Of a stretch of 64,000 nucleotides of DNA, positions 8,313 to 48,400 are shown piece by piece. The stretch's first letter is position 1. Every line of letters begins with the position of its first letter. The translations under genes were made by a program, and so were the position numbers. The notes under the pieces were generated by a model that had not been told where the DNA came from, made no database searches, and worked only from the letters and a program-made list of their open reading frames with translations. Source of the stretch: a virus; the UHGV virus genome UHGV-1366828. One strand, written 5' to 3'.

Positions 8313-8420
8313 ATCATGCCTTCCTTAGCAATATTGATACCTTTATTATATAAAATTCTTATTTTCTTTTCAACTATACACTTTAGGAGAATGTTAGTGT
8401 TCAAAATGTTTTGACGTTTT

Positions 8421-11782: not shown

Positions 11783-13138
11783 TTAAAGGTTCGGGTTACT
11801 AGAGCTGAATCTACCTGTACCTGCCCCAAGCTGATTAAAATGCGCGTGCAACCGATTATCTTTACTGTTTACACATTCCGGAATCTTGTCTATATACGTT
11901 CCGATCAGTTTTTCAAGGCCGCGTTTTTCAAGAATCAAATCGCATATTGGAAGCTTGATTTTCTGAAGAATTTCTTCTCCTGTTCCTCGAGGAGCTTTCT
12001 TGTCCTGTGCGGGTGTTCCTAGTATGTCATACAACAGAATTGCAAGCTGTGTAGGACTATTTAACTGCGGAGGATTTTCTAACTGTTCATTCTTTGACTT
12101 CTTGTAAGTAAATTCCCCCGCCTTATTAGGCTTTGAATTACGCTCTTTATAGTTTGCTTCTTTTGTCAATCTCCATGCAGATATCTTGTCAGAATACTTT
12201 GACAACTCCGTGTCAATCTTCGCGTTCACTTCGTCTACTTTTTTGTGGTACTTGTTGCTGAGTCTTTTCGCGTATTCTTTGTCAATCTCAATGCCATAAA
12301 GTTCCATTTCTGCGCACACGGGAACAACTGGCATTTCAACGTTCATAAACAGATCAAATAGCATTTCATTTCCAGGCTTATTAAACTGTTCCTTCTGCCA
12401 CTCATACAGTCTGTAAGTTATATAGGCATCCGTTGCTGCATACAAAGCAAAGATTTCGGGTCTAACATAAGCATACGGAATTCCTTGAAATAGATGCTCT
12501 ATATCATACTTTTCTTGAGTACTGTCAATATGAAGTATGTATTGTTTTTTCAAGCCTGCAAGCTCATTTTCATCGAGTATTCTTGCTGCTATTTCAGTGT
12601 CCCAATAAATATTCAGAACACAATTACAAGTACACTTGATAACCTCATAGTCAAACTTTCCGTTATGCATGAGAATCTGTGTGTTGGAAAGACGGTCAAA
12701 CTGCTCTTTGATATCTAGCTCTGTAAGCTGGTTCTCAATGAGAATGTCTGTGTCGGGTTGTGTATGATGAATAGGAATATATGCGCTAAGTTGACCCGGA
12801 GTATAGATACAGGCGCCCATAAGTAAACAAGTAAGAGGTTCAAGACTGTTATTTGTTTCTGTGTCTATAGCAATTATTCCGTTACGGATAGCTTCATCAA
12901 TATACTGTGACAACTCATCTTTTGATGTAATCACCTTTGTATTGGAAGTATATCCTCCGAGAACTCTGTTTACTTCTTCATAAATAAGCTGCAATTTGTC
13001 AAAGGTAGAAACTGTCTTTGACTTTATAGCCTTTCTAGTTTCTACCTTTGGGTCTTTAGGAGAACTGACCTTCTTTGCAACTTTCTTCACTTCCTTCTTT
13101 GCGGAAGGAACTTCAAATTCATCTCCCCACAGGGACAT
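11783..13138 (-). CDS. polA: family-A DNA polymerase exon 1 (3'-5' exonuclease domain and N-terminal polymerase domain up to ...GRFSSSNPNL)
   Basis: Exo I AIDTETN; GTGRFSSSNPNL matches Pol I TGRLSSSDPNL(QNIP). Confidence 0.75.
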   Translation of the reverse strand: MSLWGDEFEVPSAKKEVKKVAKKVSSPKDPKVETRKAIKSKTVSTFDKLQLIYEEVNRVLGGYTSNTKVITSKDELSQYIDEAIRNGIIAIDTETNNSLEPLTCLLMGACIYTPGQLSAYIPIHHTQPDTDILIENQLTELDIKEQFDRLSNTQILMHNGKFDYEVIKCTCNCVLNIYWDTEIAARILDENELAGLKKQYILHIDSTQEKYDIEHLFQGIPYAYVRPEIFALYAATDAYITYRLYEWQKEQFNKPGNEMLFDLFMNVEMPVVPVCAEMELYGIEIDKEYAKRLSNKYHKKVDEVNAKIDTELSKYSDKISAWRLTKEANYKERNSKPNKAGEFTYKKSKNEQLENPPQLNSPTQLAILLYDILGTPAQDKKAPRGTGEEILQKIKLPICDLILEKRGLEKLIGTYIDKIPECVNSKDNRLHAHFNQLGAGTGRFSSSNPNL

Positions 13139-14151: not shown

Positions 14152-15111
14152 TCAACTTGTAAACGAATACTGAGAAATAAGTGGTAAATTTGCAATCTCT
14201 TCTGCTGACAAGTCGTTGCAGTCTTTTCCTCTGGGTAGTAGCATTATATCTACAAATACGTCTTTCCGTATATTAGTTAAAAATCTGTTTATTCCCTTGT
14301 CTCCTGCGTTATCTCCGTCAAAAGCAAGAATATAATGTCTTATCGGACACTTATTTAAAATATCATATTGCTCTTTAGCACCTGTTCCGATAAGAGCTAC
14401 AGCTGGATAGCCTAACGTGTTAAGATATAATGCGTTCAGCTGACTTTCACATATGAATACTGTGTCTTTACTCTCTTGTATCATAAAGTTTAGAAGGTAT
14501 ACAGGCTTCTTGACTCCTGGTGGAATAAAAAACTTCTTTCCCTTTACAGAGCGTTTTGTTACAAACTTTAGTCTTCCTCTTTCATCCCAAACAGGAAATG
14601 TTATGCTATCTGTTTGAGGGTCATACCCTACCTTGTATTTCAGTATAACTTCTTCAGAAAGTTTACGCTGAAACTGATAAGGATGAAAGTATGCAAAGTT
14701 ATTGAGGATTGACTCGTCAAGGAATTGCTCTTGTGATCTTTCAAGTTTTATTTCCGGCAATACAACTTGATGTTCAATAAAGATATTAGCATAGCGTTGT
14801 ATGAGCCATTCCTTACCGAATTCGTCATCTTTCCCAAAACAGTGCCCAACCAATGAATATAGAGGGACACTTATACCACAAGCAAAACAGTGTGTTATTC
14901 CCTTGACAGTGTCCTTGTCATCGTCTCTTGCAAATACAGTACAACTAGGGTGTTTCTCCTTGCCGTCTGAATGATAAGGGCATTGAATGAATATATTGTC
15001 TCCCTTGTCAATTATCTTGTTTAGATATCGACCGTTTGTTTCTCTGTTAATGTCTCTCAGTATGTCATATACAGGAGCATCAATTATTTTGTTACCAATA
15101 ATTAGTTCCAA
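14152..15111 (-). CDS. dnaG: DnaG-like DNA primase (CHC2 zinc finger plus TOPRIM)
   Basis: CPYHSDGKEKHPSC...CFACG zinc finger; TOPRIM ICESQLNALYL...ILAFDGDNAGDKG; begins with TTG immediately after the helicase TAA, in the same frame. Confidence 0.7.
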   Translation of the reverse strand: MELIIGNKIIDAPVYDILRDINRETNGRYLNKIIDKGDNIFIQCPYHSDGKEKHPSCTVFARDDDKDTVKGITHCFACGISVPLYSLVGHCFGKDDEFGKEWLIQRYANIFIEHQVVLPEIKLERSQEQFLDESILNNFAYFHPYQFQRKLSEEVILKYKVGYDPQTDSITFPVWDERGRLKFVTKRSVKGKKFFIPPGVKKPVYLLNFMIQESKDTVFICESQLNALYLNTLGYPAVALIGTGAKEQYDILNKCPIRHYILAFDGDNAGDKGINRFLTNIRKDVFVDIMLLPRGKDCNDLSAEEIANLPLISQYSFTS

Positions 15112-17421
15112 TTACAACACATCTTCTTCAAATTCTTTTGCTAATTCTTCTGAGCCCTCACCCGCCAAAGCGTTTCCTTCTTCAGGCAAATATTCAAATA
15201 CCCCTCGGTCAAAATTTGATGCATATCGAAGTTTTTGATTGTTTACAGCGTCTCTTGCCTTTGACAGATTAAGTGTCAGAATATCATCTTTCTGTTCAAG
15301 GAATATTACAATAGTACTATCCTGTGAAATTCTATCTGACTGTGCAATGTGACTTACATCAACACCCGAGGAAGTATCATTTCGATTCTGTTGAGAAACA
15401 GCGATGATTGGTATCTTCTCCATAACTTGAAGGTTTTTCAAATCTCTTGAAATGTTTGAAGCTTTTTCTACAGGATTTCTTGCCCTTCTATCATCTTCTA
15501 GTAAGGAGTGTTGGTCCACAAATAGAATGTCCAACTTGTCTTGTTCTATAAATGCCCTTAATGCAGTAACCCCTGCAGGCCCGTTAATGTCATTAGGTGT
15601 CAATACCTTGAAGGCAGTTGAAAACCTGTTACGCAACGAATCAATGTGCCGCTTATACTCGTTCTGTAGGTCTGCATTACCTCGAGTTATTCCATAGTTA
15701 GAAATGTGCCCCGACAAAGTATCAAATCGGTAGCCTACTTTATTTGTAGACATCTCACCAGAATACACTCCAACCGTCAACCCTTGTTCGAGAGCTGCAA
15801 CAGCGCATTTAAGAAGCACCCACGTATTATGCGTCAGTGTATTGTCCCATAGCATATATCTATGGTCTCCATCAAGCATAAATCCATAATATTCAATCTT
15901 TTCAACAGGTTCAATGTAGAACTTTGAAACTGCAGGATTATGACGACTATGCACAACATCGGACTTCTTCCGTTCAATCTTACAAGGAATTATGCCAACA
16001 GGACCTGTTATACTGATACTGTAATAAGGACCGTAATCCTTTCCATTATACTTTGAGTAAGACTCTTTAATTTTCCCAACTTTTAGTCCGACACCACGAC
16101 AAATCTGTGCAATATCCTCAACTAATTTTCTATTTTTCTGTGTCAGAGAATAACCTGAAACATCAGACTTATCTTTATACCTCCAAAGGCATTCTCCGTC
16201 AGTGTCTATTAACCCTGCCAGCAACTGCAACCGTTGTTCCTTGCTAGAAATGATATACTCGTGAGGTATATGTTTGTTGTTAAACAACTCTAACTCTTTG
16301 AATATTTCAAGTACGGGGTTTTTACCGCCCTTCTTTGTACCCTTAGTTACTTCCCAACCGAGAAGTCTGCCATTGAGATATTCTCTCGGAGAACAAACAA
16401 GCCCGTAATTTGCTGCAAAAGATGTCCAATAATTCTGGACTTCGACATCAGGGCAAGTCATCTCTACTCTACAAGCCGTGCCGTCTCCCAGCCAGGATCC
16501 AAGAATGTAGGGGTCTAGCTTCAAATGTTTTTCTGTGTAATCAACTGCCGGACGAAAGATTTTGTAATACTCTTGAGTACGTGGAGGCAAAGACATATAA
16601 TCCTCAATCTTCATGTCAACAAGAGTTTTCTCCCATGTAACAACCTTATCATGCTCGTGCGGAATGTTGGCATATAGAGTTAAAATATGGTCTGCGGAAA
16701 CAGTAAACGGTTCTCCTGAAGCGGGCACAATCTTATACCCATTGGACACTCCATTATGTAGACCTATTACTTTATTCACGCATTTATAACCTTGCACCTC
16801 ATCTCCGACGCGAACTTCTTCAACAGGTTTAGTAGTTCCGTCTGCCATTAGAACACGCGTTCCTTTTTCAAGACATTTGCCTACACCTGGACGTGCCGAT
16901 ATAGTAGCAAGCTCTTCATTTCTGTCCCAGCCACCAATCAATTTATCAAGCTCGTTGAACCCGGTTTTAACATAGTACTTTTCAAAATCTCTACAACGTT
17001 CAACATATGCATCGTATCTTGAAGTGTCTACAAGAAGGTCAGTTGATTGGAAATGCTTTGCTTTCACAACAGATTCCTGAGCTGTTGTGTAAACAGACAG
17101 TGCTTCGTCTACTTTGTTCTTCATCAAAAGGTCTCGTACCTTATTAAAGATTGTAGCCAGTAGACGTGTATTTCTATCTTTTACTAGTTCATCAATAAGA
17201 TAGTTATTAGGTTCTTCAACCTTTAGTACATCAAAATCCGGAAACTTTGCAACAAATGTTGCTACATCGGGAATTCTGCCGTAGTTATCAAAGTGTTCCT
17301 TTATGAAATGAAATTCATCTAGGTAATCACTGAAATATTCGTCATCAAGATTATTGCTAATAAGAAGTGACGAGTCGTTATTTGCCAGCATCTTATTGAG
17401 AACCTGCGCCTGAATAATCAA
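15112..17421 (-). CDS. dnaB: DnaB-family replicative helicase interrupted by an intein
   Basis: Walker A split: ARPGVGK|C...HN|TWVLL; H2-H4 motifs SGEMS, ILFVDQHSLL, IIAVSQQNRN. Confidence 0.8.
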   Translation of the reverse strand: MIIQAQVLNKMLANNDSSLLISNNLDDEYFSDYLDEFHFIKEHFDNYGRIPDVATFVAKFPDFDVLKVEEPNNYLIDELVKDRNTRLLATIFNKVRDLLMKNKVDEALSVYTTAQESVVKAKHFQSTDLLVDTSRYDAYVERCRDFEKYYVKTGFNELDKLIGGWDRNEELATISARPGVGKCLEKGTRVLMADGTTKPVEEVRVGDEVQGYKCVNKVIGLHNGVSNGYKIVPASGEPFTVSADHILTLYANIPHEHDKVVTWEKTLVDMKIEDYMSLPPRTQEYYKIFRPAVDYTEKHLKLDPYILGSWLGDGTACRVEMTCPDVEVQNYWTSFAANYGLVCSPREYLNGRLLGWEVTKGTKKGGKNPVLEIFKELELFNNKHIPHEYIISSKEQRLQLLAGLIDTDGECLWRYKDKSDVSGYSLTQKNRKLVEDIAQICRGVGLKVGKIKESYSKYNGKDYGPYYSISITGPVGIIPCKIERKKSDVVHSRHNPAVSKFYIEPVEKIEYYGFMLDGDHRYMLWDNTLTHNTWVLLKCAVAALEQGLTVGVYSGEMSTNKVGYRFDTLSGHISNYGITRGNADLQNEYKRHIDSLRNRFSTAFKVLTPNDINGPAGVTALRAFIEQDKLDILFVDQHSLLEDDRRARNPVEKASNISRDLKNLQVMEKIPIIAVSQQNRNDTSSGVDVSHIAQSDRISQDSTIVIFLEQKDDILTLNLSKARDAVNNQKLRYASNFDRGVFEYLPEEGNALAGEGSEELAKEFEEDVL
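15826..16875 (-). mobile_element. intein (350 aa) with LAGLIDADG homing endonuclease in the DnaB P-loop
   Basis: Cys1 (CLEKGTRVLMADG), LAGLIDTDG, C-terminal THN followed by Thr+1; excision restores GVGKTWVLL. Confidence 0.7.
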
Positions 17422-31463: not shown

Positions 31464-34349
31464 TCATACAGTAAGACCCTGTATGTATTTTCGGAGGCTG
31501 TCGATGCTTCGTTCTTCTATCTTATCATCAATAATGTAATCGCTAATTGCTCCCTTGTCATGGACTAACTCATCAACTCTCTGGTCAATGGTGTTATTGC
31601 TAATAAGATAGTGAATGAAAACGGGCTTCTTTGAACCAATTCTGTGAATACGGTCTTCACATTGCTGACAATCTGCTGCCGTCCAAGGGTTACTAACAAA
31701 GATTGCATGTGTTGCTCTATTTAGTGTAACACCCGTACCCATCTTACTAGTTGTACAGAGCATTACCATGTGTTCATTGTCATTTTGAAATTTCTCTATG
31801 TTCTCGTTTATGATAACATCAGGAACATCGCCTGTACAAAGTAGCGGTTTATACTGTTTGAGGTCTTCCTTTAGCGTATTTAAAGTGTCTTTAAATGTAC
31901 TGAATACAACAACTTTTTCGTCACCCGACACAATCTGTTCTACGAGATCTTCTGCAACAGAAACTTTTTCAGACTTTATACTTTCTGTTGTAAGAACAGA
32001 GGGACATTCTGTAGCCTGCCGTAACCGAGCTACCATTGACAAAATGTTTGCTGTAGACATATCTACTTTGTCGACCTGGTCAACAATACCTGCTTGAATG
32101 TTGGAGTAGAATGTTTCCTGTGTGGGGTTCATTTCTACAATCTGCGTAATTATTGTCTTTTCTGGGAGGTCAAGAAGATCTTTCGTTCTTCTTAGTGAAC
32201 ACTCGTTAAGCTGTTCCTTTAACGTATCAACATTTCTGTAACCTACAAAATCGTTGTTGAAGAACCCTGTATAGTTACAGTAGTAATACTTAAAGTTACT
32301 AAAACTGCAATGTTCCTTACCAATCCACTTCAATGGAATGTAAGCATCAAGAGGACTATTAAGAAGTAACGTTCCCGTTAAAGCTACTCGATACTTTGCA
32401 GAAGTTAACTTCAGAAAATTCTTAGACTGAACAGCTGTAGGATTCTTACAACGATGGACTTCATCAATGATAATGAGGTCGAACTTATTTGCGCCTTTAT
32501 TGATTCCTTTTACAACATTTGCATCTCTTAAAGTTTCAATGTTTGTTACAACAAAGAATTCATCAATGGTCCTGTTTAGATCAGCAACTCTGTCATTCAC
32601 ACTTCCGATTGTGAATTTACCAGATTTTGTAATACGTTGACCTAATATGTAACAACTTTCCTTAGTATGTTTTTCAATTTCTCTTTTCCAGTTGAATTTA
32701 AGGTTGTTAACACCACAAATAATTAAACAGTGCTCAATCCCTTCACGCTTTTTCAGTTCGAGAGCCAAGTAAAGCATCTGCAACGTATTATGTGTTACAC
32801 AGCACCCTTCGATTAGATACGTCTTTGAAGGGCTGTCAACAGTAATACATCGTCCAACTTTCAAAGTTATGGGCTCAATTTTAGCAAACCGCCTTCTCGG
32901 ATTACCTCCATTGCTTCTTGCTCTTAACAACTCTTTCTTACGTGGCAGGGTTACAAACAAGGAAGGGTCGGCTACACGTATGGTTAGACTATAGGACAAT
33001 CCTGTACACTTCCCGTTATATTTAGCTTGTCCTACATGTTTATGACATATTCCTCCTAGGGACTCTACAATTTCACGAACATCGTCACACAATTTCTCAG
33101 AGACAGTTGAGTAATCTAAGTGATTATCCTTAGCAGCATAACCATCTGTGTCAAACAGTCCTCGAAGAACGTCCATTCTAACTTCAACAGTGTTGTACTT
33201 ATAGACATCAGGAATAAATTTGGTGTGAGAAGTACAACCAAACAATCCCAGGTCAAGAAGGTCTTGATGCAAGGGATTTCCAGCTTCTCTTCTGTACGAC
33301 CACCTAGACCCGGCATATAAACTGTTTTGATTAATACTATATTTTATTTCGTCCAATTTTTTATACATAAGATTAGTATTATCTGTCGGCAACCCTAGAT
33401 ATCTGCACACCTCTTTACCTGACCCAATTCTAACGCCGTCCGCATACCATACGTAACCTCTGTTTGTAATAACTTGTCCCTCTTTCTGGCATATTCTATA
33501 GGATATTGGGGCGCACTTTTTCAACTGTAAATCTTCGGGAAGGTTTTCCCTTACTTTGTTTACAATATGTTCATCCACAGTTGTAATATCAATGGATTTT
33601 GAGATGCTACCGTCACCAAGTAAGACCCCTAACAAATAGGGTTGAATTGGGACATTTTGATGAACAAACTGAATGGGTTTTGTTAGGGGCACATAGTAAG
33701 GCGTTTCTTTTGAGTCAATACGTCTGTAAGATTTTCTACAATCATTCTCAAGAAACCACTTAGTAGGAACAACTCTTCCGTCGGATAATAACCACAAATG
33801 GTCTTCGCAACAGTCAACAGTTAAGCCATCTGTGAATGTAACTCTGTACATATTCAGGTTATCGTGGTCATACACTGCTAACACTTTGCAAGGATTGCCC
33901 TCTTTGTCTATAACAAAATCTCCTACTTTTAATTCTCCCATTGTGGTTTTACCCGTAGGAGTATACACACTAGTATCTAAACTAACGGCTTTTCCAAGAC
34001 CGGGTGCGTCAAGAAGTAGCCATTTATCATGAGACAGGCCAAATTTTATCCCGTCGGCTTGATATGGAAACGGAGTTGTTTTAAACTCGCTAAGTTGAAC
34101 ATCTTTAACAGGATGTTTCTTTTCATCAGGCTTCAACTTTAACTCAATATCGTCAAAAACATTAACACTATTTATAATTGAAGCAAGGTCAGTAACAGGG
34201 ACTTCCCACATCTTACTTTTCTTGTCATAGTTAGCTACAGTAACACTGTTTTTAAGTGCTTCTATAATGTCTTTGTTGTACTCAAAGCTAACATACAGAG
34301 AAGAGGTGCCGGGAACCTTGCTGTTTAATTTTTCTTCAATCGTTATCAA
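31464..34349 (-). CDS. SNF2/DExH-family helicase interrupted by an intein
   Basis: motif I split: DAPGLGK|A...HN|TLQML; DEVH box IIIDEVHRCKN; SNF2-type C-terminal helicase domain. Confidence 0.7.
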   Translation of the reverse strand: MITIEEKLNSKVPGTSSLYVSFEYNKDIIEALKNSVTVANYDKKSKMWEVPVTDLASIINSVNVFDDIELKLKPDEKKHPVKDVQLSEFKTTPFPYQADGIKFGLSHDKWLLLDAPGLGKAVSLDTSVYTPTGKTTMGELKVGDFVIDKEGNPCKVLAVYDHDNLNMYRVTFTDGLTVDCCEDHLWLLSDGRVVPTKWFLENDCRKSYRRIDSKETPYYVPLTKPIQFVHQNVPIQPYLLGVLLGDGSISKSIDITTVDEHIVNKVRENLPEDLQLKKCAPISYRICQKEGQVITNRGYVWYADGVRIGSGKEVCRYLGLPTDNTNLMYKKLDEIKYSINQNSLYAGSRWSYRREAGNPLHQDLLDLGLFGCTSHTKFIPDVYKYNTVEVRMDVLRGLFDTDGYAAKDNHLDYSTVSEKLCDDVREIVESLGGICHKHVGQAKYNGKCTGLSYSLTIRVADPSLFVTLPRKKELLRARSNGGNPRRRFAKIEPITLKVGRCITVDSPSKTYLIEGCCVTHNTLQMLYLALELKKREGIEHCLIICGVNNLKFNWKREIEKHTKESCYILGQRITKSGKFTIGSVNDRVADLNRTIDEFFVVTNIETLRDANVVKGINKGANKFDLIIIDEVHRCKNPTAVQSKNFLKLTSAKYRVALTGTLLLNSPLDAYIPLKWIGKEHCSFSNFKYYYCNYTGFFNNDFVGYRNVDTLKEQLNECSLRRTKDLLDLPEKTIITQIVEMNPTQETFYSNIQAGIVDQVDKVDMSTANILSMVARLRQATECPSVLTTESIKSEKVSVAEDLVEQIVSGDEKVVVFSTFKDTLNTLKEDLKQYKPLLCTGDVPDVIINENIEKFQNDNEHMVMLCTTSKMGTGVTLNRATHAIFVSNPWTAADCQQCEDRIHRIGSKKPVFIHYLISNNTIDQRVDELVHDKGAISDYIIDDKIEERSIDSLRKYIQGLTV
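32787..33989 (-). mobile_element. intein (401 aa, Ala at position 1) with LAGLIDADG homing endonuclease in the SNF2 helicase P-loop
   Basis: block A AVSLDTSVYT..G, block B TDGLTVDCCEDHLW, LLGVLLGDGSI and LRGLFDTDGYAA, C-terminal VTHN plus Thr+1. Confidence 0.6.
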
Positions 34350-36002: not shown

Positions 36003-36515
36003 TTAGCCTTCATCTGGGTTTGTCATTCTCATTGCCCATTCAATTATAGCATTTACACCAGGGACAATTCTTGACAACTGTTCTGCTGGAATTTCTAGTC
36101 TTGCCAAATCTCTTTTTCCTGTTTTATCTTCTGTGTCCGTCACTAGATATAACATGAACACATCTGTAGAATCAACAGGAACAGCGGCGTATAACATATC
36201 GCTTGAGATTACCGCTGTAAAGTTAGCAACAAATCTTCCTTGATTGTCTACCTTCCAGCTTGCTCCTGTTAACGGAAGTCTATTTATTGTTAAATAGGAC
36301 AGGAAGTCATTGGTACTGCCAGGTACTAGCTTTCTTACGTCAATGTACTTCGGAATGTCACAATCCCCTCGGTAGTTTCCGCTCATTATTCTTGCAAAAG
36401 ACTCAAACAAAGCAGGCAGTCCTTCATTGTGGGACTGGAAGGAGAATACTCGGTCCTTTATTTTTAATTTTACATTAACATTTCCATTGTACCAAGTTTC
36501 AGTTATATTTTTCAC
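36003..36515 (-). CDS. structural protein, hypothetical
   Basis: ORF track. Confidence 0.4.
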   Translation of the reverse strand: MKNITETWYNGNVNVKLKIKDRVFSFQSHNEGLPALFESFARIMSGNYRGDCDIPKYIDVRKLVPGSTNDFLSYLTINRLPLTGASWKVDNQGRFVANFTAVISSDMLYAAVPVDSTDVFMLYLVTDTEDKTGKRDLARLEIPAEQLSRIVPGVNAIIEWAMRMTNPDEG

Positions 36516-37624
36516 TTCGTTCTCCGATCTGGATCTTCCAATCCGTAGGCTTGTAGTATATATCTTGCAAAATTACACTCTTCCCATACACCGTTTAACT
36601 GTAAGTAGTATTTTCCCTCACAGTATACTAGAGAGATTTGTGGGAGACCTAGTTGTGCTTTCAGTTCAATTGTTTTTTTACGAGAAGTCCTTCTTGAACG
36701 AGGAATTGACGGAACAGTTCCCTTGAAATCAATTCTTCCAAATTCTAAGTTTCCATTCTCAGCATCTATTCCAGTTACAATAACAGGCTCTCCCCTGCCC
36801 ATAGCATCGTTTACTATTGCTACGGTATACAACTTTTCTGTAAGAGTATTTATGTAATTTTCTGCGTCTTCCAGTTTGGTGTAGTATCCAACAAATCTTG
36901 GGCTGTTGTAACTTGTTGTAGAAATGACAGGGGCAGTGTTTGCTGCACCCACACGGTATTTAGTTTCCGCATTTGACATCCCTTGAGGAGTTCCCCTTAC
37001 TTCAGCATTCAAGTTATCCGAAACAAAGATTAACTCTGCGGAGTCTACATTATACAATACAATATCGGGAAGTTCGACGTTCTTATCAAATTCTATGTAG
37101 TAATTTATACCGGCAGGCAGAATATAGCGAAAAATTTCTTCTAGTACTGTAATGTCGGGTTTTGTTGAAAATGAGTGTATTTTTACTACTAAGCTGTTGT
37201 TTTCTGGAAATTTTCCATTTGCTAACACACAAGGCATTGCTTCAGAAAAAGGTTTACTGTATGGGGTTTTTAAGTAGTAAACTTCCAAATCAGAAGAAAC
37301 GGAATACATTCTTAAGAACAAGTATAACGTTTCTTTTATTGCTTTTAACGACCCTTTATTCTTTACTAGGATCGGGAAACATTCTAGAACTTTACGGAGT
37401 TTTTCGTCGTCTATTTTCTTTTCAGTAAAGAAGCCTAATTTAGTTTGTAGTAGTTGTAATATACTAGTTCTACACTGTTGCGTATCTATCAATTCTACAA
37501 TTGAATCCGTATCGAATTTCATTCCATTGAATACACAATCATATAAACGAGACAAAAGCTGAAAGTCTCTTGACTCCTCAGTGTAGATCTGAGGAGTCAT
37601 TTCTTGTACATTTATTATACTCAT
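36512..37624 (-). CDS. baseplate-associated protein, hypothetical
   Basis: ORF track; ATGA coupling with the gpJ-like gene. Confidence 0.4.
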   Translation of the reverse strand: MSIINVQEMTPQIYTEESRDFQLLSRLYDCVFNGMKFDTDSIVELIDTQQCRTSILQLLQTKLGFFTEKKIDDEKLRKVLECFPILVKNKGSLKAIKETLYLFLRMYSVSSDLEVYYLKTPYSKPFSEAMPCVLANGKFPENNSLVVKIHSFSTKPDITVLEEIFRYILPAGINYYIEFDKNVELPDIVLYNVDSAELIFVSDNLNAEVRGTPQGMSNAETKYRVGAANTAPVISTTSYNSPRFVGYYTKLEDAENYINTLTEKLYTVAIVNDAMGRGEPVIVTGIDAENGNLEFGRIDFKGTVPSIPRSRRTSRKKTIELKAQLGLPQISLVYCEGKYYLQLNGVWEECNFARYILQAYGLEDPDRRTK

Positions 37625-40600
37625 TATCTCTTACCTGCTATATAGATTGAAGTTTTGTCGGAAGAGTCAAACTGACATATTGTGAACTTGTTATAGATGT
37701 GATTCGTATTTAGGAAGGAAGCAGCTTCGAGAGGATTTGCAATCAACTCATCGTCATCTACTTGATATGTGTAGTTGAATATGTTGTCTACATCAAATCT
37801 TGGAATCAACGTTAACATACGTTCAAAATACTCTTCGCTAATACTGTCAGGATGCGTATACAAGAACGGGTTCTGAAGCGTTATTGTAACTTCTTCTGTT
37901 GACATTGTTCTGGTAACGGTTAACTGATGATTGCTCGTAATAGTATCGTCTGTAACTTCAAATGTTAAGTAATATGTACGTTGTCCCTTCAAATCAGTTT
38001 GTGTTGAGTTAAGAGAAGTTAGATTTTCTCCATCAAACTGTATTGTCAACGAATCATTGTCAGGGAACTTATTTGTATTACTAAACGGAATCAAGTATCT
38101 TCCCTTAGGAAGAATGAACTGAATTGTAGCTGTTTTTCCGGAAGCTCCCGCAACCAATTTAATCTTAACATCGTCTTTTCCATATACAACAGTATCTGTG
38201 GAAAGTTGCTTCTGGTAGACAAGAAGATTCATATAACGTCTATTTCCTTCGCTGTCTACAATATAGGTAGGAAGTTTATCCGAACTACCATCAGAATCAA
38301 TAGACATTGAAGAAATAAGAGCTGTTTGATAATAGTTATTGGACTCTTTATCTGCACCCGTTATTACATAAGAAGAAAAATCAGAAGCATTTGCTGTTTG
38401 GAATTCAATGGTCTGATTTGACAGGAGTACTCGTTCTGTGTCCGGACCAACCTTCAGGTTTAACAACGATTGCGCATTCCAAGAGACAACATTTCCACTA
38501 CTATTCTGAAGCTCCATCTGAGGTAGAAACACCCAAGCGTTATCTTCTGGGCTCTGGTACCCGATTGTAAATCCTTGTAATGTCAACGAAGTTGGGTCAG
38601 TTGTATTCTCTGCGTAGGTGTATGTAACAACTACTGTTGCGCCATTCGGAATAACACCTGTATCAACTGTGCAGGTTTGAGCTCCTTGATTGAAGGTATA
38701 GTTGGTAACTGTTACGGCACCTTCCCCTGTTGTCGTATAAACAACGGACACAATTCCTGTAACACTTGTTTGAGTAAATGTTATTGTATTGCTTGTACCG
38801 TCAACCCAGGAATTAACTGTTTTAGATGTTGTGTGTGGAGTTACATTTGATCCTGACTTTACACCGCCTCGATTGAATACTCTAGACCAAGATGCAAGAT
38901 TGTCATTCACAAGCCTGAATTTTGTTCCTGCATTCAATGTGTATATCTTATTCTCTGTTAACTCTACATATCCATTTGTTGGAATTTCTTTCCAGTAGTT
39001 AGCAAGAGCAGATGCGCCAGAGTTTAAGATAACAGAAGAATCTAGAACTTTAACTCTCCACATATTTATTTCTGTGTTAGGCTCTACAACGTGAACTCTT
39101 GTTCCGGAACCCAGAATTGACATCTCGCTCAGGTCAGCATTTGAATATATGAAATACTCTCCTGCATCTAATAACCTGTCGTGTGTTGTATCATTTCCGT
39201 GGTTTACGGGAAATTCATAATACTGTAAATCTTCAGTTGTTTCGTTTAGTATCCAGTAACAATAACAACCATCAGAAGAGTTGATAGTAACTTCATTTAT
39301 TTTCTTGATGACAAGAGTTTTTGTGCCTGACAAGATATTTGCAGCAGAATTCAAGTTTAGACCAACTGCACTTGAAAGATCTGCTAGGTATCCCATATTG
39401 TCCGTACTGGTGTAATTATTCGGGCTCAAGTCTGTTTCTGACTGTAAGAAAGCTCCTCCAACAGACGTATTACTAGAGGTCAGTTCAAATGTAGGACAGA
39501 CGATATGACCTTTACCATAACTAGCAAATCTGTAGTAAGCATCTTTGTTGTCGCTATCTTTCCAGTACAGGAACAAATACTCATTTGGGAGTAACTGATA
39601 GTTTGTATTAGCGTTTATTACTTTACTAGAAGCATTGGGTGTATAGAACTCAAACTTAACATAGTTTGAATAACTTGTTGCATCTATCAGGTTTGGTGAG
39701 TAGAACTGAATGCTTTCATTGTCTCTGAGTGTATACTCATTTGAAGTGTTACTCACAGCTATGTCAACATTAGTTCTTACATATTTAACATCGTTTACTT
39801 CATATTTATCTTGTGCTTCATTGTTTGGACGGTTGCTGTTGTAAGTCTGGTCAAAACGATGTGTGTATTTATTTCCGGAAATGATTAACGGAGTTTTTCC
39901 GGCAAGTATAGACTTAGCATATATCTCATCTTCAAACTGTGTCTTATAAGAGATACGTGCCGTAATTTTGTCACCAGTTACAATATTTGACCCTTCAGTC
40001 GACCAATAAGTAATAACAACAGGAACTCCAGTAGATGACGGAGACGGTAAAGTAACAACTTTATTACTAAAGGTTGATCCCGATAACTCAACTCTACTAC
40101 GGGTAACACTCTCTATACGATTTACTGCGTAAGCTACAGTGAACTGTGTTTGATTTGCTGTTGCAATAAATGTCTCTTCATACTTGAAGTAGATACCATA
40201 ATCTGTTAAATTAACATTTGTTGTGTTTAGTTTCCAGTTTGGACTACTATAAACAAACGTAATAGGCTCGTAGTTTGTCTCGCCTGCTTTCCGCATAAAC
40301 ACTTGAGGGTCGGCAATAGGAACAGACTCGTTCGTAAACTGATATGATATGTCAACTTTATCTTCTGGGGTGTTGATTGCTACTTCAACAAATGGGTAGC
40401 CTGTGTCAACTAGATTTTTATCGTAATACACAGCATATGTAGTAAACTCTATATTTGCCATGTTTACATCTTTTATTCTTGCATCAGAAGCTTGAATAAT
40501 TTCTTTTACTTTTTCCAGTGTTACTTCTGACCCAAAATCAAGTTCTTTTGAACTCAACTTATTATACAGGGCGGATTTTATAGTTCCCATCATGTCAGAA

Positions 40601-42198
40601 GCTTCAACGGAACTTAATGGGTACTGTGTTGTAATACGACAATCAATCGGAAACTTATTCTTGAAAAAGCAGAAGTGAGACGATACGCTACTAGGTGACT
40701 CAAGATTTTTGAAATCATGTTGTAAAGACTTGACATCTTGCAAATAATCTTTAACAGTATCCTGTTGATTGTTACTTAACATATTAAATGTTAAACTGTG
40801 TGCAGCAGCTGTTGTAACTGCTGGCATATACTGTAAAAGATATAACTTTAATGAAAAGGCATCAAAGTTTGGTGTTGAAGAAACTTCGTCAAATGCTCCT
40901 TTAACAAGATTGTATACTTTACCAGAATCGAGGTCGTAGCAATAAGATGTTCCTATCTGCTCCGCTGTATACGCATTGTAGTATATTGTTCCTACTTTTC
41001 CTGCATAAAATGTTGTTCCTGACAGATACCCAGGAATAGCATCTTTTTCAATAACATGTACAGAGGATAGAATACTATCTTTAAGTGTAACTATGTTGTA
41101 AGTATTCTGTAAATCGTTTGTTCTGTCGCAAACAAAACCATTAGAAACAAGTTCAGAATTGAGTAAATAATTCAGGTAGTCTCTTAATGTTACAAGGGTA
41201 TCAAATGTTCCTATAGTTCTCTTGTAATGTTTGTATCCATCTTCAATAGTTTCCGGGTCTTTCCCGTCAACTGCACTGTAGATATTCATTACCTTTACTC
41301 TGTCTGCGTTGATGGTTACAGAGGTGTCTTCAACAGGGGCAAATGAATAATAGAAGTCAGTAAGTACATTTGCCGCAACATTTCCCGCAAGACCATCTGT
41401 TCTAAGATATGTTATGTTGATGCCGTTTTTAAATAGTAGCTCAGCATCTTCGGGGAATTCCAGATAGCAATATGCACCGTCTGACGTTGTTCCGAAACGA
41501 TAGATTGTCTGTCCCGGTTCTTCTACTAACAGATTGTCCTTCTTTACCCACTCATTGTAATTGGTGTTGTCAGAGTTTGTTATGAAGATTCCGTTTTCTG
41601 CTATCATGTTGGTATCAAAATACAACCTATTCTTCGTATCCAAATGAGAAACATTGATGTTTGTTTCACCATTTATTGAATAAGTTGTAGCAACACCTTC
41701 CATAACAACTGCAGAAGAAATTGTTCCGTCAGTTAAAAGATGAACATCACTAACGCTTCGGTCGATTTCTTGCGTGCCGGACGTTCCGATAATGGAATAA
41801 ATGATTTCACGTTCACTGTCTGTCACCATAGTAAACTTAGGAATTGTATAAGACGGTACTTCTGTTGTATCCCCTATATACTTCATAGATATAATGGTAG
41901 AAGCGGAACGGTACCATTTCATGAAATAGCCTAACTGTGCAAATAGTTGTCGAGCGTTGGACAACTGCGAAACAGTTTCTGGAAAACATTCAAGAATGTT
42001 ATTGTCGATGTTATAGTTTATCTTGTCCGCTATTAAAGCATTCAGTTTAAGCAGAATAACCCCAGGGTCAGATTCATTTGACACCGAGGGGTCCCACTTA
42101 TATGTTAATTTCTTAACTAGGTCTAGTAACTCTACGTATACACTTTCAAAATCTTTGTTTGTATAACTAAGAGGTCCTAATGGATTTTGTATACTCAT
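37624..42198 (-). CDS. baseplate J-like (gp6/gpJ family) N-terminal domain fused to a ~1200-aa fibre-like extension
   Basis: N-terminus ...YTNKDFESVYVELLDLVKKLTYKWDPSVSNESDPGVILLKLNALIADKINYNIDNNILECF matches the baseplate-J signature. Confidence 0.5.
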   Translation of the reverse strand: MSIQNPLGPLSYTNKDFESVYVELLDLVKKLTYKWDPSVSNESDPGVILLKLNALIADKINYNIDNNILECFPETVSQLSNARQLFAQLGYFMKWYRSASTIISMKYIGDTTEVPSYTIPKFTMVTDSEREIIYSIIGTSGTQEIDRSVSDVHLLTDGTISSAVVMEGVATTYSINGETNINVSHLDTKNRLYFDTNMIAENGIFITNSDNTNYNEWVKKDNLLVEEPGQTIYRFGTTSDGAYCYLEFPEDAELLFKNGINITYLRTDGLAGNVAANVLTDFYYSFAPVEDTSVTINADRVKVMNIYSAVDGKDPETIEDGYKHYKRTIGTFDTLVTLRDYLNYLLNSELVSNGFVCDRTNDLQNTYNIVTLKDSILSSVHVIEKDAIPGYLSGTTFYAGKVGTIYYNAYTAEQIGTSYCYDLDSGKVYNLVKGAFDEVSSTPNFDAFSLKLYLLQYMPAVTTAAAHSLTFNMLSNNQQDTVKDYLQDVKSLQHDFKNLESPSSVSSHFCFFKNKFPIDCRITTQYPLSSVEASDMMGTIKSALYNKLSSKELDFGSEVTLEKVKEIIQASDARIKDVNMANIEFTTYAVYYDKNLVDTGYPFVEVAINTPEDKVDISYQFTNESVPIADPQVFMRKAGETNYEPITFVYSSPNWKLNTTNVNLTDYGIYFKYEETFIATANQTQFTVAYAVNRIESVTRSRVELSGSTFSNKVVTLPSPSSTGVPVVITYWSTEGSNIVTGDKITARISYKTQFEDEIYAKSILAGKTPLIISGNKYTHRFDQTYNSNRPNNEAQDKYEVNDVKYVRTNVDIAVSNTSNEYTLRDNESIQFYSPNLIDATSYSNYVKFEFYTPNASSKVINANTNYQLLPNEYLFLYWKDSDNKDAYYRFASYGKGHIVCPTFELTSSNTSVGGAFLQSETDLSPNNYTSTDNMGYLADLSSAVGLNLNSAANILSGTKTLVIKKINEVTINSSDGCYCYWILNETTEDLQYYEFPVNHGNDTTHDRLLDAGEYFIYSNADLSEMSILGSGTRVHVVEPNTEINMWRVKVLDSSVILNSGASALANYWKEIPTNGYVELTENKIYTLNAGTKFRLVNDNLASWSRVFNRGGVKSGSNVTPHTTSKTVNSWVDGTSNTITFTQTSVTGIVSVVYTTTGEGAVTVTNYTFNQGAQTCTVDTGVIPNGATVVVTYTYAENTTDPTSLTLQGFTIGYQSPEDNAWVFLPQMELQNSSGNVVSWNAQSLLNLKVGPDTERVLLSNQTIEFQTANASDFSSYVITGADKESNNYYQTALISSMSIDSDGSSDKLPTYIVDSEGNRRYMNLLVYQKQLSTDTVVYGKDDVKIKLVAGASGKTATIQFILPKGRYLIPFSNTNKFPDNDSLTIQFDGENLTSLNSTQTDLKGQRTYYLTFEVTDDTITSNHQLTVTRTMSTEEVTITLQNPFLYTHPDSISEEYFERMLTLIPRFDVDNIFNYTYQVDDDELIANPLEAASFLNTNHIYNKFTICQFDSSDKTSIYIAGKR

Positions 42199-43242: not shown

Positions 43243-45459
43243 TTAAGAATACTGAAAATACAATTTTCCGCTCCACCAACCAGAAGGCTCTGCGGTACCA
43301 CAACTATTAGACAAATAATTGTTGTCTAAGAAGAATCCACCCTCCCCCGCATAGAAATACTTCGCGAACATTGACCCGTCAGTTCCCATACGAATTGAAG
43401 TTTCTGCTTTGTTATTTCCCGCATTATAGTTTTCATCTGAAACAAAACTGAAGTAGTAATCGTTTCCTAGTGACCCGACCTCCCAAGTTCCTATGTTACA
43501 TTTTGAAGAAGTAACGGGCCAGAATGCCTGTTTAGATGCATCAAAGTCAGCATTTCTTACTAATGCCTGGTCACGTGCACCTCCCCAGCTTGAAGCTCCG
43601 CCTTTTGGTCTAACAACCCCGTTTCCATTTTCTGATTCAAGTTGTAGCCGTTGTCCATATACCCAAGACCCTGCTCTAACATCTCTTCTTGCATACACGT
43701 CTCCTAATCTGCAATCAACTCCTGCAGCAACTCCAGAATCTCCGTTACCATCAACAAATCCTATACCGTACCAAGATTTAATAGCGATGTTGCAAAATCC
43801 GTCTGCCCCCATTTTGATGCCGTCTCCGTTTCCTTTATATATACCATTGCCAGATCCCCAAGCATCTCCTGAAGCCAGAAGAAGAGCACCGTCAGCATTG
43901 TACTGTGCAAATCCTAAGTTTGTGGGTGAGTTTACACCTACTCTTCCGAAGACAGTTAACTCTTTGTCAGTTGACGAAAGTCCGAAGAATGCAGCTCCAA
44001 GGCCATTGGACTTTAAATTAAGAGTTGCAGCAACACTTGTATTTGTTAAAGTACGTGTTTGAGTAGAAGTTTGCCCAAAAGAGTCAATAGCCAGTACTTC
44101 AATCAGATACGAGGCTGTTGTTGCAATGTTTCCTCCCCCAACAGGATCTGATTTCACATTGTTCTGTATGTCGGTATAATCGCTGTACGAACCTCCAAAC
44201 ACTTGCCAACGAGTCCTTATCAACAGCCAGTTATTTCCATCGTATGAAGTATGTGAAACTGACGGTGTTACTGCATAGTAAGTTCCCGAAGAAGATTCGT
44301 TACCAGAGGAGTCACATCGTATTACAGACAGGCTGTTAAATGATGGAGGGTAGTACGCTTTACCGACAATCGTTTTAGTATAAGTTGTGCCCAACCCTCG
44401 AGAGTCATATGCTGTTATAGTTACAATATTGTTACCAGTAATTGCTTTTCCCAGATTAAACGTTCCTGATTCAGTTATGCTGGTATTGAATGAATTACAG
44501 CTTATTCTAACTTCTCTTAATGTGGAGCCATAGTTACAGGTTATTTTACTTGTATCTAGTGTAGCCTTTACCTCACTAAAGCCCGCCACACAGTTTCCTG
44601 CTTTAACTTCATAAGTAGCAGAAGCCCATCCGGCGGCACATGTAGGAGGTCGGTTGTTAGTCGGGATGCTCAACGTGAACTCCGCAGAAGTTTCTCCTAC
44701 TTTAGCACCGCCACTGTTATAAGAATATACATAGATTCTGAACGACCCTGAAGTAGCATTCGGTATGTTGCTTGCAAGAGAATCTGAGGGGGCAGTATAC
44801 CACATAGACCCGCCCGTAACTTTTTCGCCGATTAACTGCATTCCGCTATGATGTACAAAGGAGTACCAAACATCATACTTGTAATCTGATCTGGACGGAT
44901 TCCATACGATCTGAAACTGCTGGTCCATATACAGCGTTGTAGAAACACTGATGGAGGTTGCAGGGGTTTCCGGCCTTATTTCACTCAGTGAACAAGATAT
45001 GTTTGTTACACCCTTCATAAACGGGTTAAGAGAATTTGTCCCGTTCGTTGTTAAAAACATATAATATGTTCCAGAGGACGTTATATTGCAGGGAACATTT
45101 ACTACAATATTTGCCGTCCCTTCCCAACCGTTAATCCAGGCCACGGATCTTCCGATAACCGCAGTGCTAGGAGCTTCAGTACTAAACGCCGATACAGGGT
45201 CGTAGTCATAAATCAACGCATAAACCGTTACGTTTTCATAGCTATCATTGGAGGCAATATTTCCAATGTTGAAATTCAACCCGGTAACTTGATACCCTGC
45301 AGTTACTGAAATCGGCATCGTATAAACAACACCCTGGTCCCAGAAGCTAGCGTTGTCGTATCCCATCACTATAGGATTTGTTGTTGAATCTACCCATGTT
45401 AATCCTACATTGGGCAGACCTTGTCTGGCTTTATAAAATGATAATGAAACAGTACTCAT
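43243..45459 (-). CDS. tail fibre/receptor-binding protein
   Basis: 738 aa, Ser/Thr/Gly/Asn-rich beta-type composition, position. Confidence 0.45.
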   Translation of the reverse strand: MSTVSLSFYKARQGLPNVGLTWVDSTTNPIVMGYDNASFWDQGVVYTMPISVTAGYQVTGLNFNIGNIASNDSYENVTVYALIYDYDPVSAFSTEAPSTAVIGRSVAWINGWEGTANIVVNVPCNITSSGTYYMFLTTNGTNSLNPFMKGVTNISCSLSEIRPETPATSISVSTTLYMDQQFQIVWNPSRSDYKYDVWYSFVHHSGMQLIGEKVTGGSMWYTAPSDSLASNIPNATSGSFRIYVYSYNSGGAKVGETSAEFTLSIPTNNRPPTCAAGWASATYEVKAGNCVAGFSEVKATLDTSKITCNYGSTLREVRISCNSFNTSITESGTFNLGKAITGNNIVTITAYDSRGLGTTYTKTIVGKAYYPPSFNSLSVIRCDSSGNESSSGTYYAVTPSVSHTSYDGNNWLLIRTRWQVFGGSYSDYTDIQNNVKSDPVGGGNIATTASYLIEVLAIDSFGQTSTQTRTLTNTSVAATLNLKSNGLGAAFFGLSSTDKELTVFGRVGVNSPTNLGFAQYNADGALLLASGDAWGSGNGIYKGNGDGIKMGADGFCNIAIKSWYGIGFVDGNGDSGVAAGVDCRLGDVYARRDVRAGSWVYGQRLQLESENGNGVVRPKGGASSWGGARDQALVRNADFDASKQAFWPVTSSKCNIGTWEVGSLGNDYYFSFVSDENYNAGNNKAETSIRMGTDGSMFAKYFYAGEGGFFLDNNYLSNSCGTAEPSGWWSGKLYFQYS

Positions 45460-45480: not shown

Positions 45481-48400
45481 TTAGATATGTTTTATTATCA
45501 ATCCACTTGACGAATCGAATGTTATAACCCATTGTTCGTCTAAAGATAATTTGTTATTCACAGTAGCATTGTTTATATACAATTCTTGGTTAGAAATGTA
45601 CGCTACTTCGGTAGAACCTTCCATGAAACTATTCTTTGTAGGGGACATTTGCTGTTTGAAGTTGCCTTTTCCAAGAGTCATCGTGCTGTTCTGAATATCG
45701 AACTGCATAAATGAGTCAATGTTCTCTTTATATGGAGTAAAGGTAACTGTGTCGAGTTTTGCAGCAAGGACACCGTCTATAGCAGTTAATGTTTGCTGGA
45801 CATGTTGTATATTTTCTGCATTCTGGTGTGTACCGTCTAAAGCATCATTTGCTGTATTTTGGGCATTGTCGGCAGATGATTGAGCGTTATCTGCAGCATC
45901 TTTTGCTTCCTGCGCCTGTAACCAACTTACTACACCAGCATCAAATGCAGCTGACCTTTCAACATTTCCTGCAGTACAGCTATTATCAGAAAAGATAATC
46001 ATCTGGAAAGTGTAGCACAATTTACTGACTGTACCACTGTTTACTATAGGAGCGGAATCCTGCCAAGTAAACGACACTGTTACTTCTTCAGCATCACCAA
46101 CTTTGTTTTTGTACTCACCTGTAGGAACAACAGAAGAATCATTCTCGTCATATACAACGGTGGGAGCAGAGACAAATGTAACATTGTCGACAGTTAACAT
46201 GTACCAACTCTTTAAAGAGCTAGTATCATTCAAATCTTTAATTGTAACTTCGGATAATGTTAATGTTTTTGAAGAAGATACAACTTTACAGATTATTACA
46301 ACTTGACCTCTAACATCAGTTCTAGTTACTGTAACTTTATCCGACGTAGATGTAAGATATTGAATTAGGATTATACTTTCATCTGCAGGGGCTGTATTGA
46401 ATTTAATTGTATCTTTATCAACAACTGTAAATTCTGTAGTAGTAGTTCCGTTTATTGTAATTTCTACTTTAGGACTTGTCGTTGCATTTAAAATGTCAAG
46501 ACCTAAGTCAAATGTTGTTGATGTTCCATTTCCAGTAAACCGCTCTTTAGCAAACCAGTTTAACTGTCCTATTGTTGTAGCCCCGTCTTTTACAACACCT
46601 GTAGCACTTACTGTTAGTTGTTTAACTCCGAGATAAACATCTGCACTCAATGTTGTAGACATAGCTTTTGCATTGAATAGTGTCCCGTTATCTGCTTGAA
46701 TTTCTACAGACAGAACGCTGTCTCCATATACACCGATGATTAAAGCATCTGTTACCGAACCAGACGTGTCGCCATTTGTATAAGTTATTACAGAATAGTT
46801 CCAGAGGTATCTATTGGTGGCATCCATTGACGGAAGGTTCGTAGACCATCCTGTTGTTGGTCGAGTTGTTGTGGCACTAAGCGCGTAATACTCAACAATG
46901 CTAGTTATTCCAACACCAGCAGAACCTGGTTCGCCTTGTGAGCCATATGCGCCTATAATACACGGGTCTGTATATGTCGATACTGTGTTGCTGTATTTAA
47001 CCTCTTCATAATTCCATAAATAAGGTTTGTCAGAACTTATTGTCTGGATATCTGTTGTCCAGCCTTCCGTGTCTCTTGTTACACCTGTACTTACATTGGT
47101 TGCTAGATAATAATTTAGGACTGCTGTAATACTTGTTCCATCTGCGCCGTCTTGACCATTCTGCACTAGAATTACAGGTGTTGCCCATTCGTCTGGAGTA
47201 ATTGTGTCTGTATTTTCTACAGACGCTGCTGTTGCCGCTGTAACATATAACGGGTCTGTTCCTGAAGGGATTGTAGAACTCCACCCAGTAGGAACAGTTG
47301 TAAGCTTCTTTGTCGTAAAGTTGTAAGTTAGGGTAGTAGTCCAGTTAATTGTTGCAGTAGTTGCGCTACGTTTGTACAAGTATACAATGGCAGTATTAAC
47401 ACCATTAGTACCATCTGTACCGTCTTTACCGTCTGTGCCATTTTGGCCCGGTGCGCCGTCTTCAACTAATTTAACAATTGAGCTCCATTCAGAAGGGAGT
47501 ATTGTGTCAGTAGCTTCAGAACTTACAGCTGTTGCTTGAATTGAAAAGCACGGATTTCCATCAGATGCGGGAATTGTTCTTGACCATCCTGCAAGATTTC
47601 CTGACAGTTCTCCTGTAGCAAAAGTATATGTTAAATTGACTGTTGGTTTAGTCAATCCCGTGTCTGTAGAAGCTCTCTTGTAAAGAAATATAGAAGCGGT
47701 ATTCAGACCATTTGTGCCGTCAGTTCCTGGTGCACCATCCTGACCATTCTGCCCATTTTGCGCAAGTATAACAGGTGTTGCCCACTCAGATGAGGGAATT
47801 GAATCGTTACTGGTGTTGGAAGATGCAGTAGCTGCTGTTACAAAAATCGGAGCTGTGCCAGACGGTATTTCTTCATACCAACCTTTAGGAACATTGGTTA
47901 TTGACTTTGTGTCAAAGTTGTATATTAAATCATTTGTCCAGTCAATTGTTGCGGAGTCAGCTCTCTTGTAAAGATATACAACAGCGGAGTTTCTACCGTC
48001 AGTTCCGTCTTTACCGTCAATACCATTGGTGCCATTTCTGCTTACTGAGTAGGAGGTAGAGCTTGTATCATCTGTATATTCAATGACTGTTCGTGTCCAT
48101 AAGTACTGACCCGACCCAGTAGCATCAATTGTATCCTTCCATCCTGTTTGTGGAATATCCGTTCCACTATCCGAAACAACATATGAAATTGTTGTCTGTT
48201 TGATGCCTACACCGTCAGCACCCGGACTACCGTCAGTACCATTTACGCCATTCTTACTTACAGAATAAGATACGGAAGATGTGTTATTTGTATACTCAAT
48301 GGTTGTCCTTGTCCACAAGAATTTACCTTGAGCAACTTCTGGAATGTCCGCCTGCCAACCTGATTGAGGAAACTGAACACCATTATCAAAAACAGCATAC

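Follow-up and report, generated by a model that had tools for sequence, protein, structure and literature searches.

The 64,000-nucleotide viral sequence UHGV-1366828, hereafter the window, is a fragment of a phage genome in which a gene for an SNF2-family helicase is interrupted, within its ATP-binding loop, by a long in-frame insert at positions 32787-33989. This insert is a genuine intein, on evidence far beyond chance that includes Pfam and Protein Data Bank (PDB) matches, 96 homologues and a fold resembling that of PI-SceI. Judged by its sequence, it is very probably a class 3 intein, the class recognised by a Trp-Cys-Thr (WCT) triplet, that carries a LAGLIDADG homing endonuclease, sits between the Lys and the Thr of the helicase Walker A motif (GLGK/T, where the slash marks the junction), and is spliced and homes as proposed below.

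The element lies on the minus strand, where the reverse complement of 32787-33989 translates into an open 401-residue peptide (AVSLDTSVYT...LIEGCCVTHN). A plus-strand reading of the same interval is ruled out, as that frame is full of stops. The peptide occupies residues 121-521 of a 961-residue open reading frame (ORF), and its flanks read LLLDAPGLGK on the N-terminal side and TLQMLYLALE on the C-terminal side. The precursor is laid out as a HARP-like N-terminal region, followed by the SNF2 ATPase and then Helicase_C, and Pfam matches in the flanks are to SNF2-rel_dom (1e-21), Helicase_C (1e-12), ResIII and HARP. Its N-terminus matches that of two orthologues (P0004 and P0005) found in the homologue search described below. 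Excision of the insert in silico gives a 560-residue protein that contains GLGKTLQ and matches the DNA helicase family phrog_62 in PHROG (4e-105). The SNF2 core is thus recognisable in its motif I (GLGKT, restored on excision), its motif II (DEVH) and its Helicase_C lobe. The G+C content is 39.6% in the intein, 37% in the exteins and 39.1% in the window.

The boundaries of the element are defined by genes that do not contain it. When the spliced protein is aligned with gp33 of Clostridium phage phiCTP1, an intein-less helicase, the junction is free of gaps (DEQGLGKTKEA in gp33, DAPGLGKTLQM here), with 35% identity and an expect value (E) of 1e-114. A scan of IMG/VR with the C-extein recovered 12 relatives at 54-99% amino acid identity, and in 12/12 of them GLGK is followed by T or S. 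Two of these relatives, IMGVR_UViG_3300045988_145944 (L005) and IMGVR_UViG_3300045988_128299 (L011), have flanks that are ~94.5% identical to the window in nucleotide sequence and contain the same gene minus exactly 1203 nucleotides, with a product identical to the spliced protein at 555 of 560 residues. The empty-site DNA of L005 or L011 reads ...CTTGGCAAGACGTTGCAGATG..., and a fragment carrying it ...GACGCACCCGGCCTTGGCAAGACGTTGCAGATGCTTTAC...; the L005/L011 gene is a natural empty site. Because the empty-site alleles lack exactly the 1203 nucleotides, both boundaries and the identity of Ala1 are fixed. A competing N-terminal boundary at Ser3 (GLGKAV/S...) is ruled out, since GLGK runs straight into T, with nothing in between, in phiCTP1 and in the empty-site alleles. 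Precise removal of the in-frame insertion therefore restores a conserved host protein, as seen against L005, L011 and gp33. A preliminary description of this stretch had placed an intein at the same positions and in SNF2 motif I, with a 401-residue removal restoring GLGKTLQ, and these points stand, with the feature on the minus strand; its residue 1 is indeed Ala, the boundary does not shift to a Cys or Ser, and the terminal His-Asn and a +1 nucleophile, here Thr, are both present.

The empty-site alleles also bear on whether the insert is removed from the protein. The extein genes of L005 and L011 differ from that of the window at 108-111 of 1683 nucleotides. The exteins are under strong purifying selection, because ~108 nucleotide changes are accompanied by only 5 amino acid changes relative to the empty allele, and under such selection the intein would have to be removed for the helicase to work. 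This pattern argues that the insert is excised to yield a functional helicase. In a more distant relative recovered by the same scan, 55% identical (L012, IMGVR_UViG_3300029305_005443, near position ~3001), the SNF2 frame extends only 59 residues upstream and 93 residues downstream of the P-loop junction; an intron, a different insertion or a frameshift may break that gene at some other point.

All of the splicing blocks A, B, F and G can be located in the insert (Table 1), which ends in ...VTHN and is followed by the nucleophile Thr+1. The definition of class 3 calls for a residue 1 that is no nucleophile and that co-varies with Trp at B:12, Cys at F:4, Thr at G:5 and Ser or Thr (rarely Cys) at +1 (PMC2807308). 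The residue set is complete here: Ala1, Trp66 (B:12), Cys381 (F:4), Thr399 (G:5), the His-Asn end and Thr+1. In a PDB sequence search the top matches, with E values of 2e-8 to 6e-8, are to class 3 inteins from the DnaB proteins of Mycobacterium smegmatis (6bs8) and M. chimaera (6rix, 6riy), and the alignment to these three follows residue for residue through A-(V/L)-(S/A)-L-D-T, D/Q-H-x-W, r-C-(I/V)-x-V-D and T-H-N. The Trp stands two residues past the block B His, with His64-Leu65-Trp66 aligned to HQW of 6bs8 and 6rix, while Cys381, in GRCITVD, aligns with RCVEVD of the same two structures. In the same search the score of the class 1 gp41-1 intein over the N-lobe comes close to those of the class 3 inteins. 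Homology to class 3 inteins extends over the domain as a whole. The presence of the WCT motif places the element in class 3, with the block F Cys as the first nucleophile, and in this class Ala1 in a helicase P-loop is the expected state of the clade and no oddity. Class 3 inteins are known from DnaB, RecG, SNF2 and terminase genes, mostly in P-loops, with the F:4 Cys as an obligate nucleophile (PMC2807308); crystal structures of Mch DnaB1 show a Cys-His-Thr triad (PMC7664689), and the class forms a monophyletic group for which an origin in phages has been proposed (PMC3196547; PMC4031507).

The same residues are conserved among homologues. A search of a 5.8-billion-protein collection returned 96 homologues of the intein, the strongest at E 4e-84; the residue counts that follow refer to those homologues aligned at the given position. 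At residue 1, Ala is found in 46, Asp in 4, Gly in 3 and Met in 2, the others being Ile, Gln and Glu, and never Cys, Ser or Thr. The B:10 His is conserved in 90/92, the B:12 Trp in 88/92, the F:4 Cys in 88/88 and the G:5 Thr in 87/88, with T, H and N of block G each present in 87/88 or 87/87. At +1, 67 homologues have Thr, 19 Ser and 1 Cys. The top homologues (P0001-P0005, P0009 and P0014) are orthologous phage SNF2 helicases that carry, at the same site, an intein beginning with Ala1 and 41-44% identical to the one described here; the remaining hosts are PhoH, RecA, DnaB, the large terminase and one DNA methylase. Among cultured phages, a WCT intein is present at the identical SNF2 site in Erythrobacter phage vB_EliS-L02 (Gly1) and Brevundimonas phage Papperlapapp (Met1). 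A scan of IMG/VR with the intein itself gave no relative, and NCBIfam gave weak partial matches to intein-containing proteins only, none of them near the cut-offs.

The metagenomic orthologues have a peculiarity of their own. In P0001-P0005, P0009 and P0014, which share the class 3 P-loop intein, the gene ends ~100 residues past DE(I/V)H(K/T)/C..., and in the contig NODE_3780 of ENA ERZ10407652 (L004) an SNF2 gene at 6001-8022 is followed by a separate gene at 8042-8908. From the sequences, the end of these orthologues at motif II looks like the N-fragment of a split intein, and the gene like a 'fractured' helicase gene. Unlike the metagenomic orthologues, the window gene is continuous at motif II (IIIDEVHRCKNP).

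The first residue being Ala, a second splicing route has to be weighed. The preliminary description, which was right about block B, the two LAGLIDADG motifs and a further P-loop intein in another helicase of the same genome (DnaB), had taken the Ala as typical of inteins in which the +1 residue attacks the N-terminal junction directly. That is the class 2 route, in which no block F intermediate is formed, and on present evidence it has only the slightest chance of applying to this element. The +1 residue does offer a hydroxyl nucleophile, and we know of no precedent for a Thr hydroxyl attacking an amide directly. Ala1 is common to the class 2 inteins of KlbA, but every known member of that class is a KlbA orthologue, marked by Cys+1, Ser at G:6, Asp at F:4 and Thr at B:7 (PMC4031507), and the residues at these four defining positions are here Thr, His, Cys and Cys. 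The host, moreover, is a phage SNF2 helicase rather than an archaeal KlbA gene, all 96 homologues belong with the WCT inteins, and the nearest structures are of class 3. The check for a Trp-Cys-Thr motif that the same description had suggested gives a positive answer (Trp66, Cys381, Thr399), and the direct-attack mechanism gives way to class 3.

Several features weigh against an ordinary, working class 3 intein. B:7 is a Cys, where the class 3 inteins that have been studied have Ser or Asp; the Cys396-Cys397 pair in block G is unusual, replacing the aromatic residue (Phe or Tyr) and the Val or Ile that homologues have there; and the closest intein found is only up to 44% identical, with no functionally tested close relative. 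It could be asked whether the insert is a fossil, a decayed intein like Arth_1007 that no longer splices and leaves the helicase permanently inactive, its function supplied by the host or dispensable. Class 3 pseudo-inteins do exist (PMC3196547), the block G cysteines stand in place of conserved hydrophobic residues, and the nearest IMG/VR relatives manage without the insert. Nonetheless, every catalytic position is intact, whereas Arth_1007 lacks the F:4 Cys, and the reading frame is unbroken across 961 codons. The purifying selection described above would also be pointless if the protein never matured. We regard decay as very unlikely.

The mechanism by which this class 3 intein would be removed can be laid out by homology to the biochemically studied members of the class. 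The helicase would be made as a 961-residue precursor in which the ATP-binding loop is interrupted. First, Cys381, aided by His64, Trp66 and Thr399, would attack the Lys(-1)-Ala1 peptide bond to give a thioester-linked block F branched intermediate. The N-extein would then be moved to the hydroxyl of Thr+1, creating the block G branched intermediate, and thereafter cyclisation of Asn401 would release the intein. Finally, an O-to-N acyl shift would leave the 560-residue helicase with its GLGKT P-loop intact. The same pathway has been established for the DnaB intein of mycobacteriophage Bethlehem (MP-Be) and the Snf2 intein of Deinococcus radiodurans (Dra) (PMC2807308; PMC4031507; PMC3196547), and the Cys-His-Thr triad of the Mch DnaB1 structure gives it a rationale (PMC7664689). 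As the P-loop is split until splicing occurs, the precursor should be without ATPase activity; the reasoning that P-loop inteins block ATPase activity until they are spliced has been discussed (PMC6195587).

Five cysteines lie in or beside the splicing blocks: Cys60-Cys61 (33807-33812), Cys381 and Cys396-Cys397 (32799-32804). Those at B:6 and B:7 are a family trait, with Cys in 68/92 and 62/92 of the homologues, respectively. A redox trap has been described for the M. smegmatis DnaB intein Msm DnaBi1 (PMC6195587), and by analogy it is conceivable that the cysteine cluster makes splicing conditional, that is, sensitive to redox state or to metals.

Within the predicted structure, the element is a bifunctional intein in which a HINT domain is interrupted by a two-motif LAGLIDADG endonuclease. 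The AlphaFold2 model, built from a 51-sequence alignment, has a mean predicted local distance difference test score (pLDDT) of 87.6 and a predicted template-modelling score (pTM) of 0.85. A Foldseek comparison of the whole chain with the PDB returned PI-SceI (E 5e-19), TliVMA, PhoVMA and PI-PfuI, and PI-SceI is matched by sequence in the PDB search as well as by fold. Over the HINT N-lobe, Foldseek returned the class 3 DnaB inteins (1.5e-7), with 6bs8 at 36% identity and a root-mean-square deviation of 1.2 Å over 78 columns. Both LAGLIDADG motifs are present with their acidic residues in a PI-SceI-like fold in the model, and these residues, Asp126 and Asp282, are kept in 82/91 and 88/92 of the aligned homologues; by its sequence the domain looks intact.

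One part of the endonuclease domain sets this intein apart. An extra module of ~65-69 residues is inserted into it, which is missing from the nearest SNF2-intein homologues, while an insertion occurs at this point in the PhoH inteins P0006-P0008. The module is modelled as beta-beta-alpha-alpha-alpha-beta at low confidence (pLDDT 53-67), in contrast to the rest of the domain, where the pLDDT is above 90. A search of the module against Pfam at E values up to 10 gave nothing meaningful. It may be an added DNA-binding element, and may resemble a helix-turn-helix of the NUMOD1 kind, an impression of ours that no tool supports.

The distribution of the intein is sporadic: it is absent from 12/12 of the nearest IMG/VR relatives, including the two that are ~94% identical in nucleotide sequence, and is present in more distant orthologues. 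During co-infection, the endonuclease would cut intein-less alleles at the P-loop site and so cause the element to be copied in. Homing into empty alleles would account for near-identical phages without the intein, and a sporadic distribution combined with an intact-looking endonuclease fits this process. The presence/absence polymorphism among ~94% identical phages is thus consistent with homing. However, many inteins carry decayed endonucleases, and a splicing-competent intein with a dead endonuclease, passed on by vertical descent only and lost precisely by the relatives, has an appreciable though minor chance of being the right description. The low-confidence module could be a disruptive insertion, and the searches gave no close donor intein, the best match being 44% identical in the 5.8-billion-protein search, with none in IMG/VR. 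Yet the two LAGLIDADG motifs are intact, acidic residues included, the domain is modelled with confidence outside the module, a precise deletion of 1203 nucleotides at the DNA level is much less likely than gain by homing, and absence from all 12 nearest relatives favours a recent gain.

The window holds a second intein in a P-loop, a class 1 element in the DnaB gene. None of the seven nearest IMG/VR relatives (L025-L031) has it, and they include both contigs without the SNF2 intein. As the same two contigs have neither element, the lineage represented by the window differs from its sister phages by both P-loop inteins. The possibility that the two are recent duplicates of one another is ruled out, since identity between them is only 29%, in a portion of the endonuclease domain (E 2e-10), and they differ in splicing class. 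A bolder scenario, which we consider improbable, is that the lineage is in the midst of an invasion by self-splicing elements: both P-loop inteins would have been gained, the extra module would serve as a device for retargeting among the P-loops of unrelated ATPases, and the five-cysteine cluster would act as a redox or metal splicing switch over helicase maturation in a phage that infects an anaerobe.

The identifiable genes of the window are all on the minus strand (Table 1), and a group I intron interrupts the gene for the family-A DNA polymerase. Megablast of the helicase gene against 50,697 phage records gave no match, and the best protein matches in cultured phages are to Clostridium phages (phiCTP1) at only ~34-35% amino acid identity; the phage is therefore distant from those in culture. 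Near the helicase gene are large minus-strand ORFs (36512-42198 and 45481-50460), of which those of 370 and 1524 residues gave no Pfam or PHROG match where tested, while a third, of 1659 residues, lay outside those tests. All three are presumably genes for structural proteins of the tail or baseplate in a phage group that has been poorly sampled.

Table 1. Features of the SNF2 helicase gene, its class 3 intein and other parts of the window (positions in the window; aa, amino acids; slashes in the sequence of the DnaB intein mark its junctions)
Feature	Position	Strand	Remarks
SNF2-family helicase precursor ORF	31464..34349	-	961 aa, begins with TTG; range includes the stop codon
N-extein of 120 aa with ...LLLDAPGLGK at its end (first half of Walker A / SNF2 motif I)	33990..34349	-	Contiguous with the C-extein in intein-less L005 and L011
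C-extein, 440 aa plus stop, starting at Thr+1 (32784-32786)	31464..32786	-	Remainder of the SNF2 ATPase, with DEVH motif II and Helicase_C
Class 3 intein (very probable class), 401 aa (Ala1...Asn401), HINT domain split by LAGLIDADG endonuclease domain	32787..33989	-	Pfam, PDB, Foldseek, empty site
Block A (AVSLDTSVYTPTG); Ala1 (33987-33989), no nucleophile	33951..33989	-	Aligns with ALALDTPLPTPSG of Msm DnaBi1 6bs8
Block B (GLTVDCCEDHLWLL); Cys60 B:6, Cys61 B:7, His64 B:10, Trp66 B:12 (33792-33794)	33786..33827	-	
Block F (VGRCITVDSPSKTYLI); Cys381 F:4 (32847-32849), predicted first nucleophile	32811..32858	-	Aligns with rC(V)EVD of 6bs8 and 6rix
Block G, GCCVTHN; Thr399 G:5 (32793-32795), His400 G:6, Asn401 G:7	32787..32807	-	
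LAGLIDADG homing endonuclease domain, intein aa ~105-345	32955..33677	-	Pfam LAGLIDADG_3 (PF14528) 1.4e-9, Hom_end (PF05204) 2.6e-4
LAGLIDADG motif YLLGVLLGDGS, Asp126	33606-33638	-	
LAGLIDADG motif VLRGLFDTDGY, Asp282	33138-33170	-	
Extra module, ~65-69 aa, inside the endonuclease domain (EGQVITNRGYVWYADGVRIGSGKEVCRYLGL...SRWSYRREAGN), intein aa ~170-238	33276..33482	-	
RecA/UvsX	1678-2895	-	
Family-A DNA polymerase, two pieces	11783-13138 and 10114-11142	-	
Group I intron interrupting the family-A DNA polymerase gene	11562-11795	-	Rfam RF00028, 73 bits, E 1e-16
Primase	14152-15111	-	
DnaB	15112-17421	-	
Class 1 DnaB intein, 350 aa, Cys1, Thr+1, LAGLIDADG domain, RPGVGK/CLEKGT...LTHN/TWVLL	15826-16875	-	DnaB Walker A loop
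Tail protein	43243-45459	-	
Tail lysin	50736-53324	-	

Class 3 inteins, with their WCT signature, their preference for the P-loops of helicases and ATPases and their proposed origin in phages, have been in the literature since 2010, so the finding adds an example and no concept. What it offers is a divergent, full-length class 3 intein with an apparently intact endonuclease, no more than 44% identical to any member of the 5.8-billion-protein collection. Most useful, as a by-product, are the naturally paired alleles with and without the intein: the empty sites in near-identical phages reveal the exact target for homing and allow a before/after comparison of class 3 mobility in uncultured Firmicutes-type phages. 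The gene is properly annotated as a 560-residue mature helicase plus an intein, instead of a 961-residue helicase.

Among known systems, the class 3 mycobacterial DnaB inteins (Msm DnaBi1, 6bs8; Mch DnaB1, 6rix and 6riy) share with this element Ala1, a start of the form A-(L/V)-x-L-D-T, the block motifs, Ser or Thr at +1 and a location in a helicase P-loop. They differ in being mini-inteins without an endonuclease, in their host, which is DnaB and not SNF2, and in having Asp rather than Cys at B:7; their redox switch uses their Cys48 (PMC6195587), for which no counterpart is shown in the SNF2 intein. The MP-Be DnaB intein, the class 3 prototype, and the Dra Snf2 intein likewise combine a non-nucleophilic residue 1 and the WCT triplet with phage or helicase hosts, and for these the obligate F:4 nucleophile and the block F branched intermediate have been demonstrated experimentally (PMC2807308; PMC3196547). 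The MP-Be intein also has an endonuclease domain (341 residues) and Thr+1 (PMC2807308; PMC3196547), but begins with Pro1 and resides in DnaB.

The SNF2 inteins of vB_EliS-L02, Papperlapapp and the metagenomic orthologues P0001-P0005, P0009 and P0014 resemble it in their GLGK/x...THN/T site, WCT triplet and LAGLIDADG domain, and the exteins of P0004 and P0005 are clearly orthologous to the window gene. The vB_EliS-L02 and Papperlapapp precursors are 28-29% identical overall, with Gly or Met as residue 1, and neither these nor the metagenomic SNF2 inteins have the extra 65-residue module; the metagenomic orthologues in turn have an additional intein at motif II, apparently a split one, which is missing from the window gene. 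The class 2 KlbA inteins (Mja KlbA) share Ala1, and so have no linear thioester step, but differ in their Cys+1, Ser G:6, Asp F:4 and Thr B:7, their archaeal KlbA host and their direct +1 attack (PMC4031507). Lastly, PI-SceI (Sce VMA1) has the same HINT and LAGLIDADG architecture and is the best whole-chain fold match, with a template-modelling score of ~0.6, but it belongs to class 1 (Cys1, Cys+1), comes from a eukaryotic host and is only ~16% identical.

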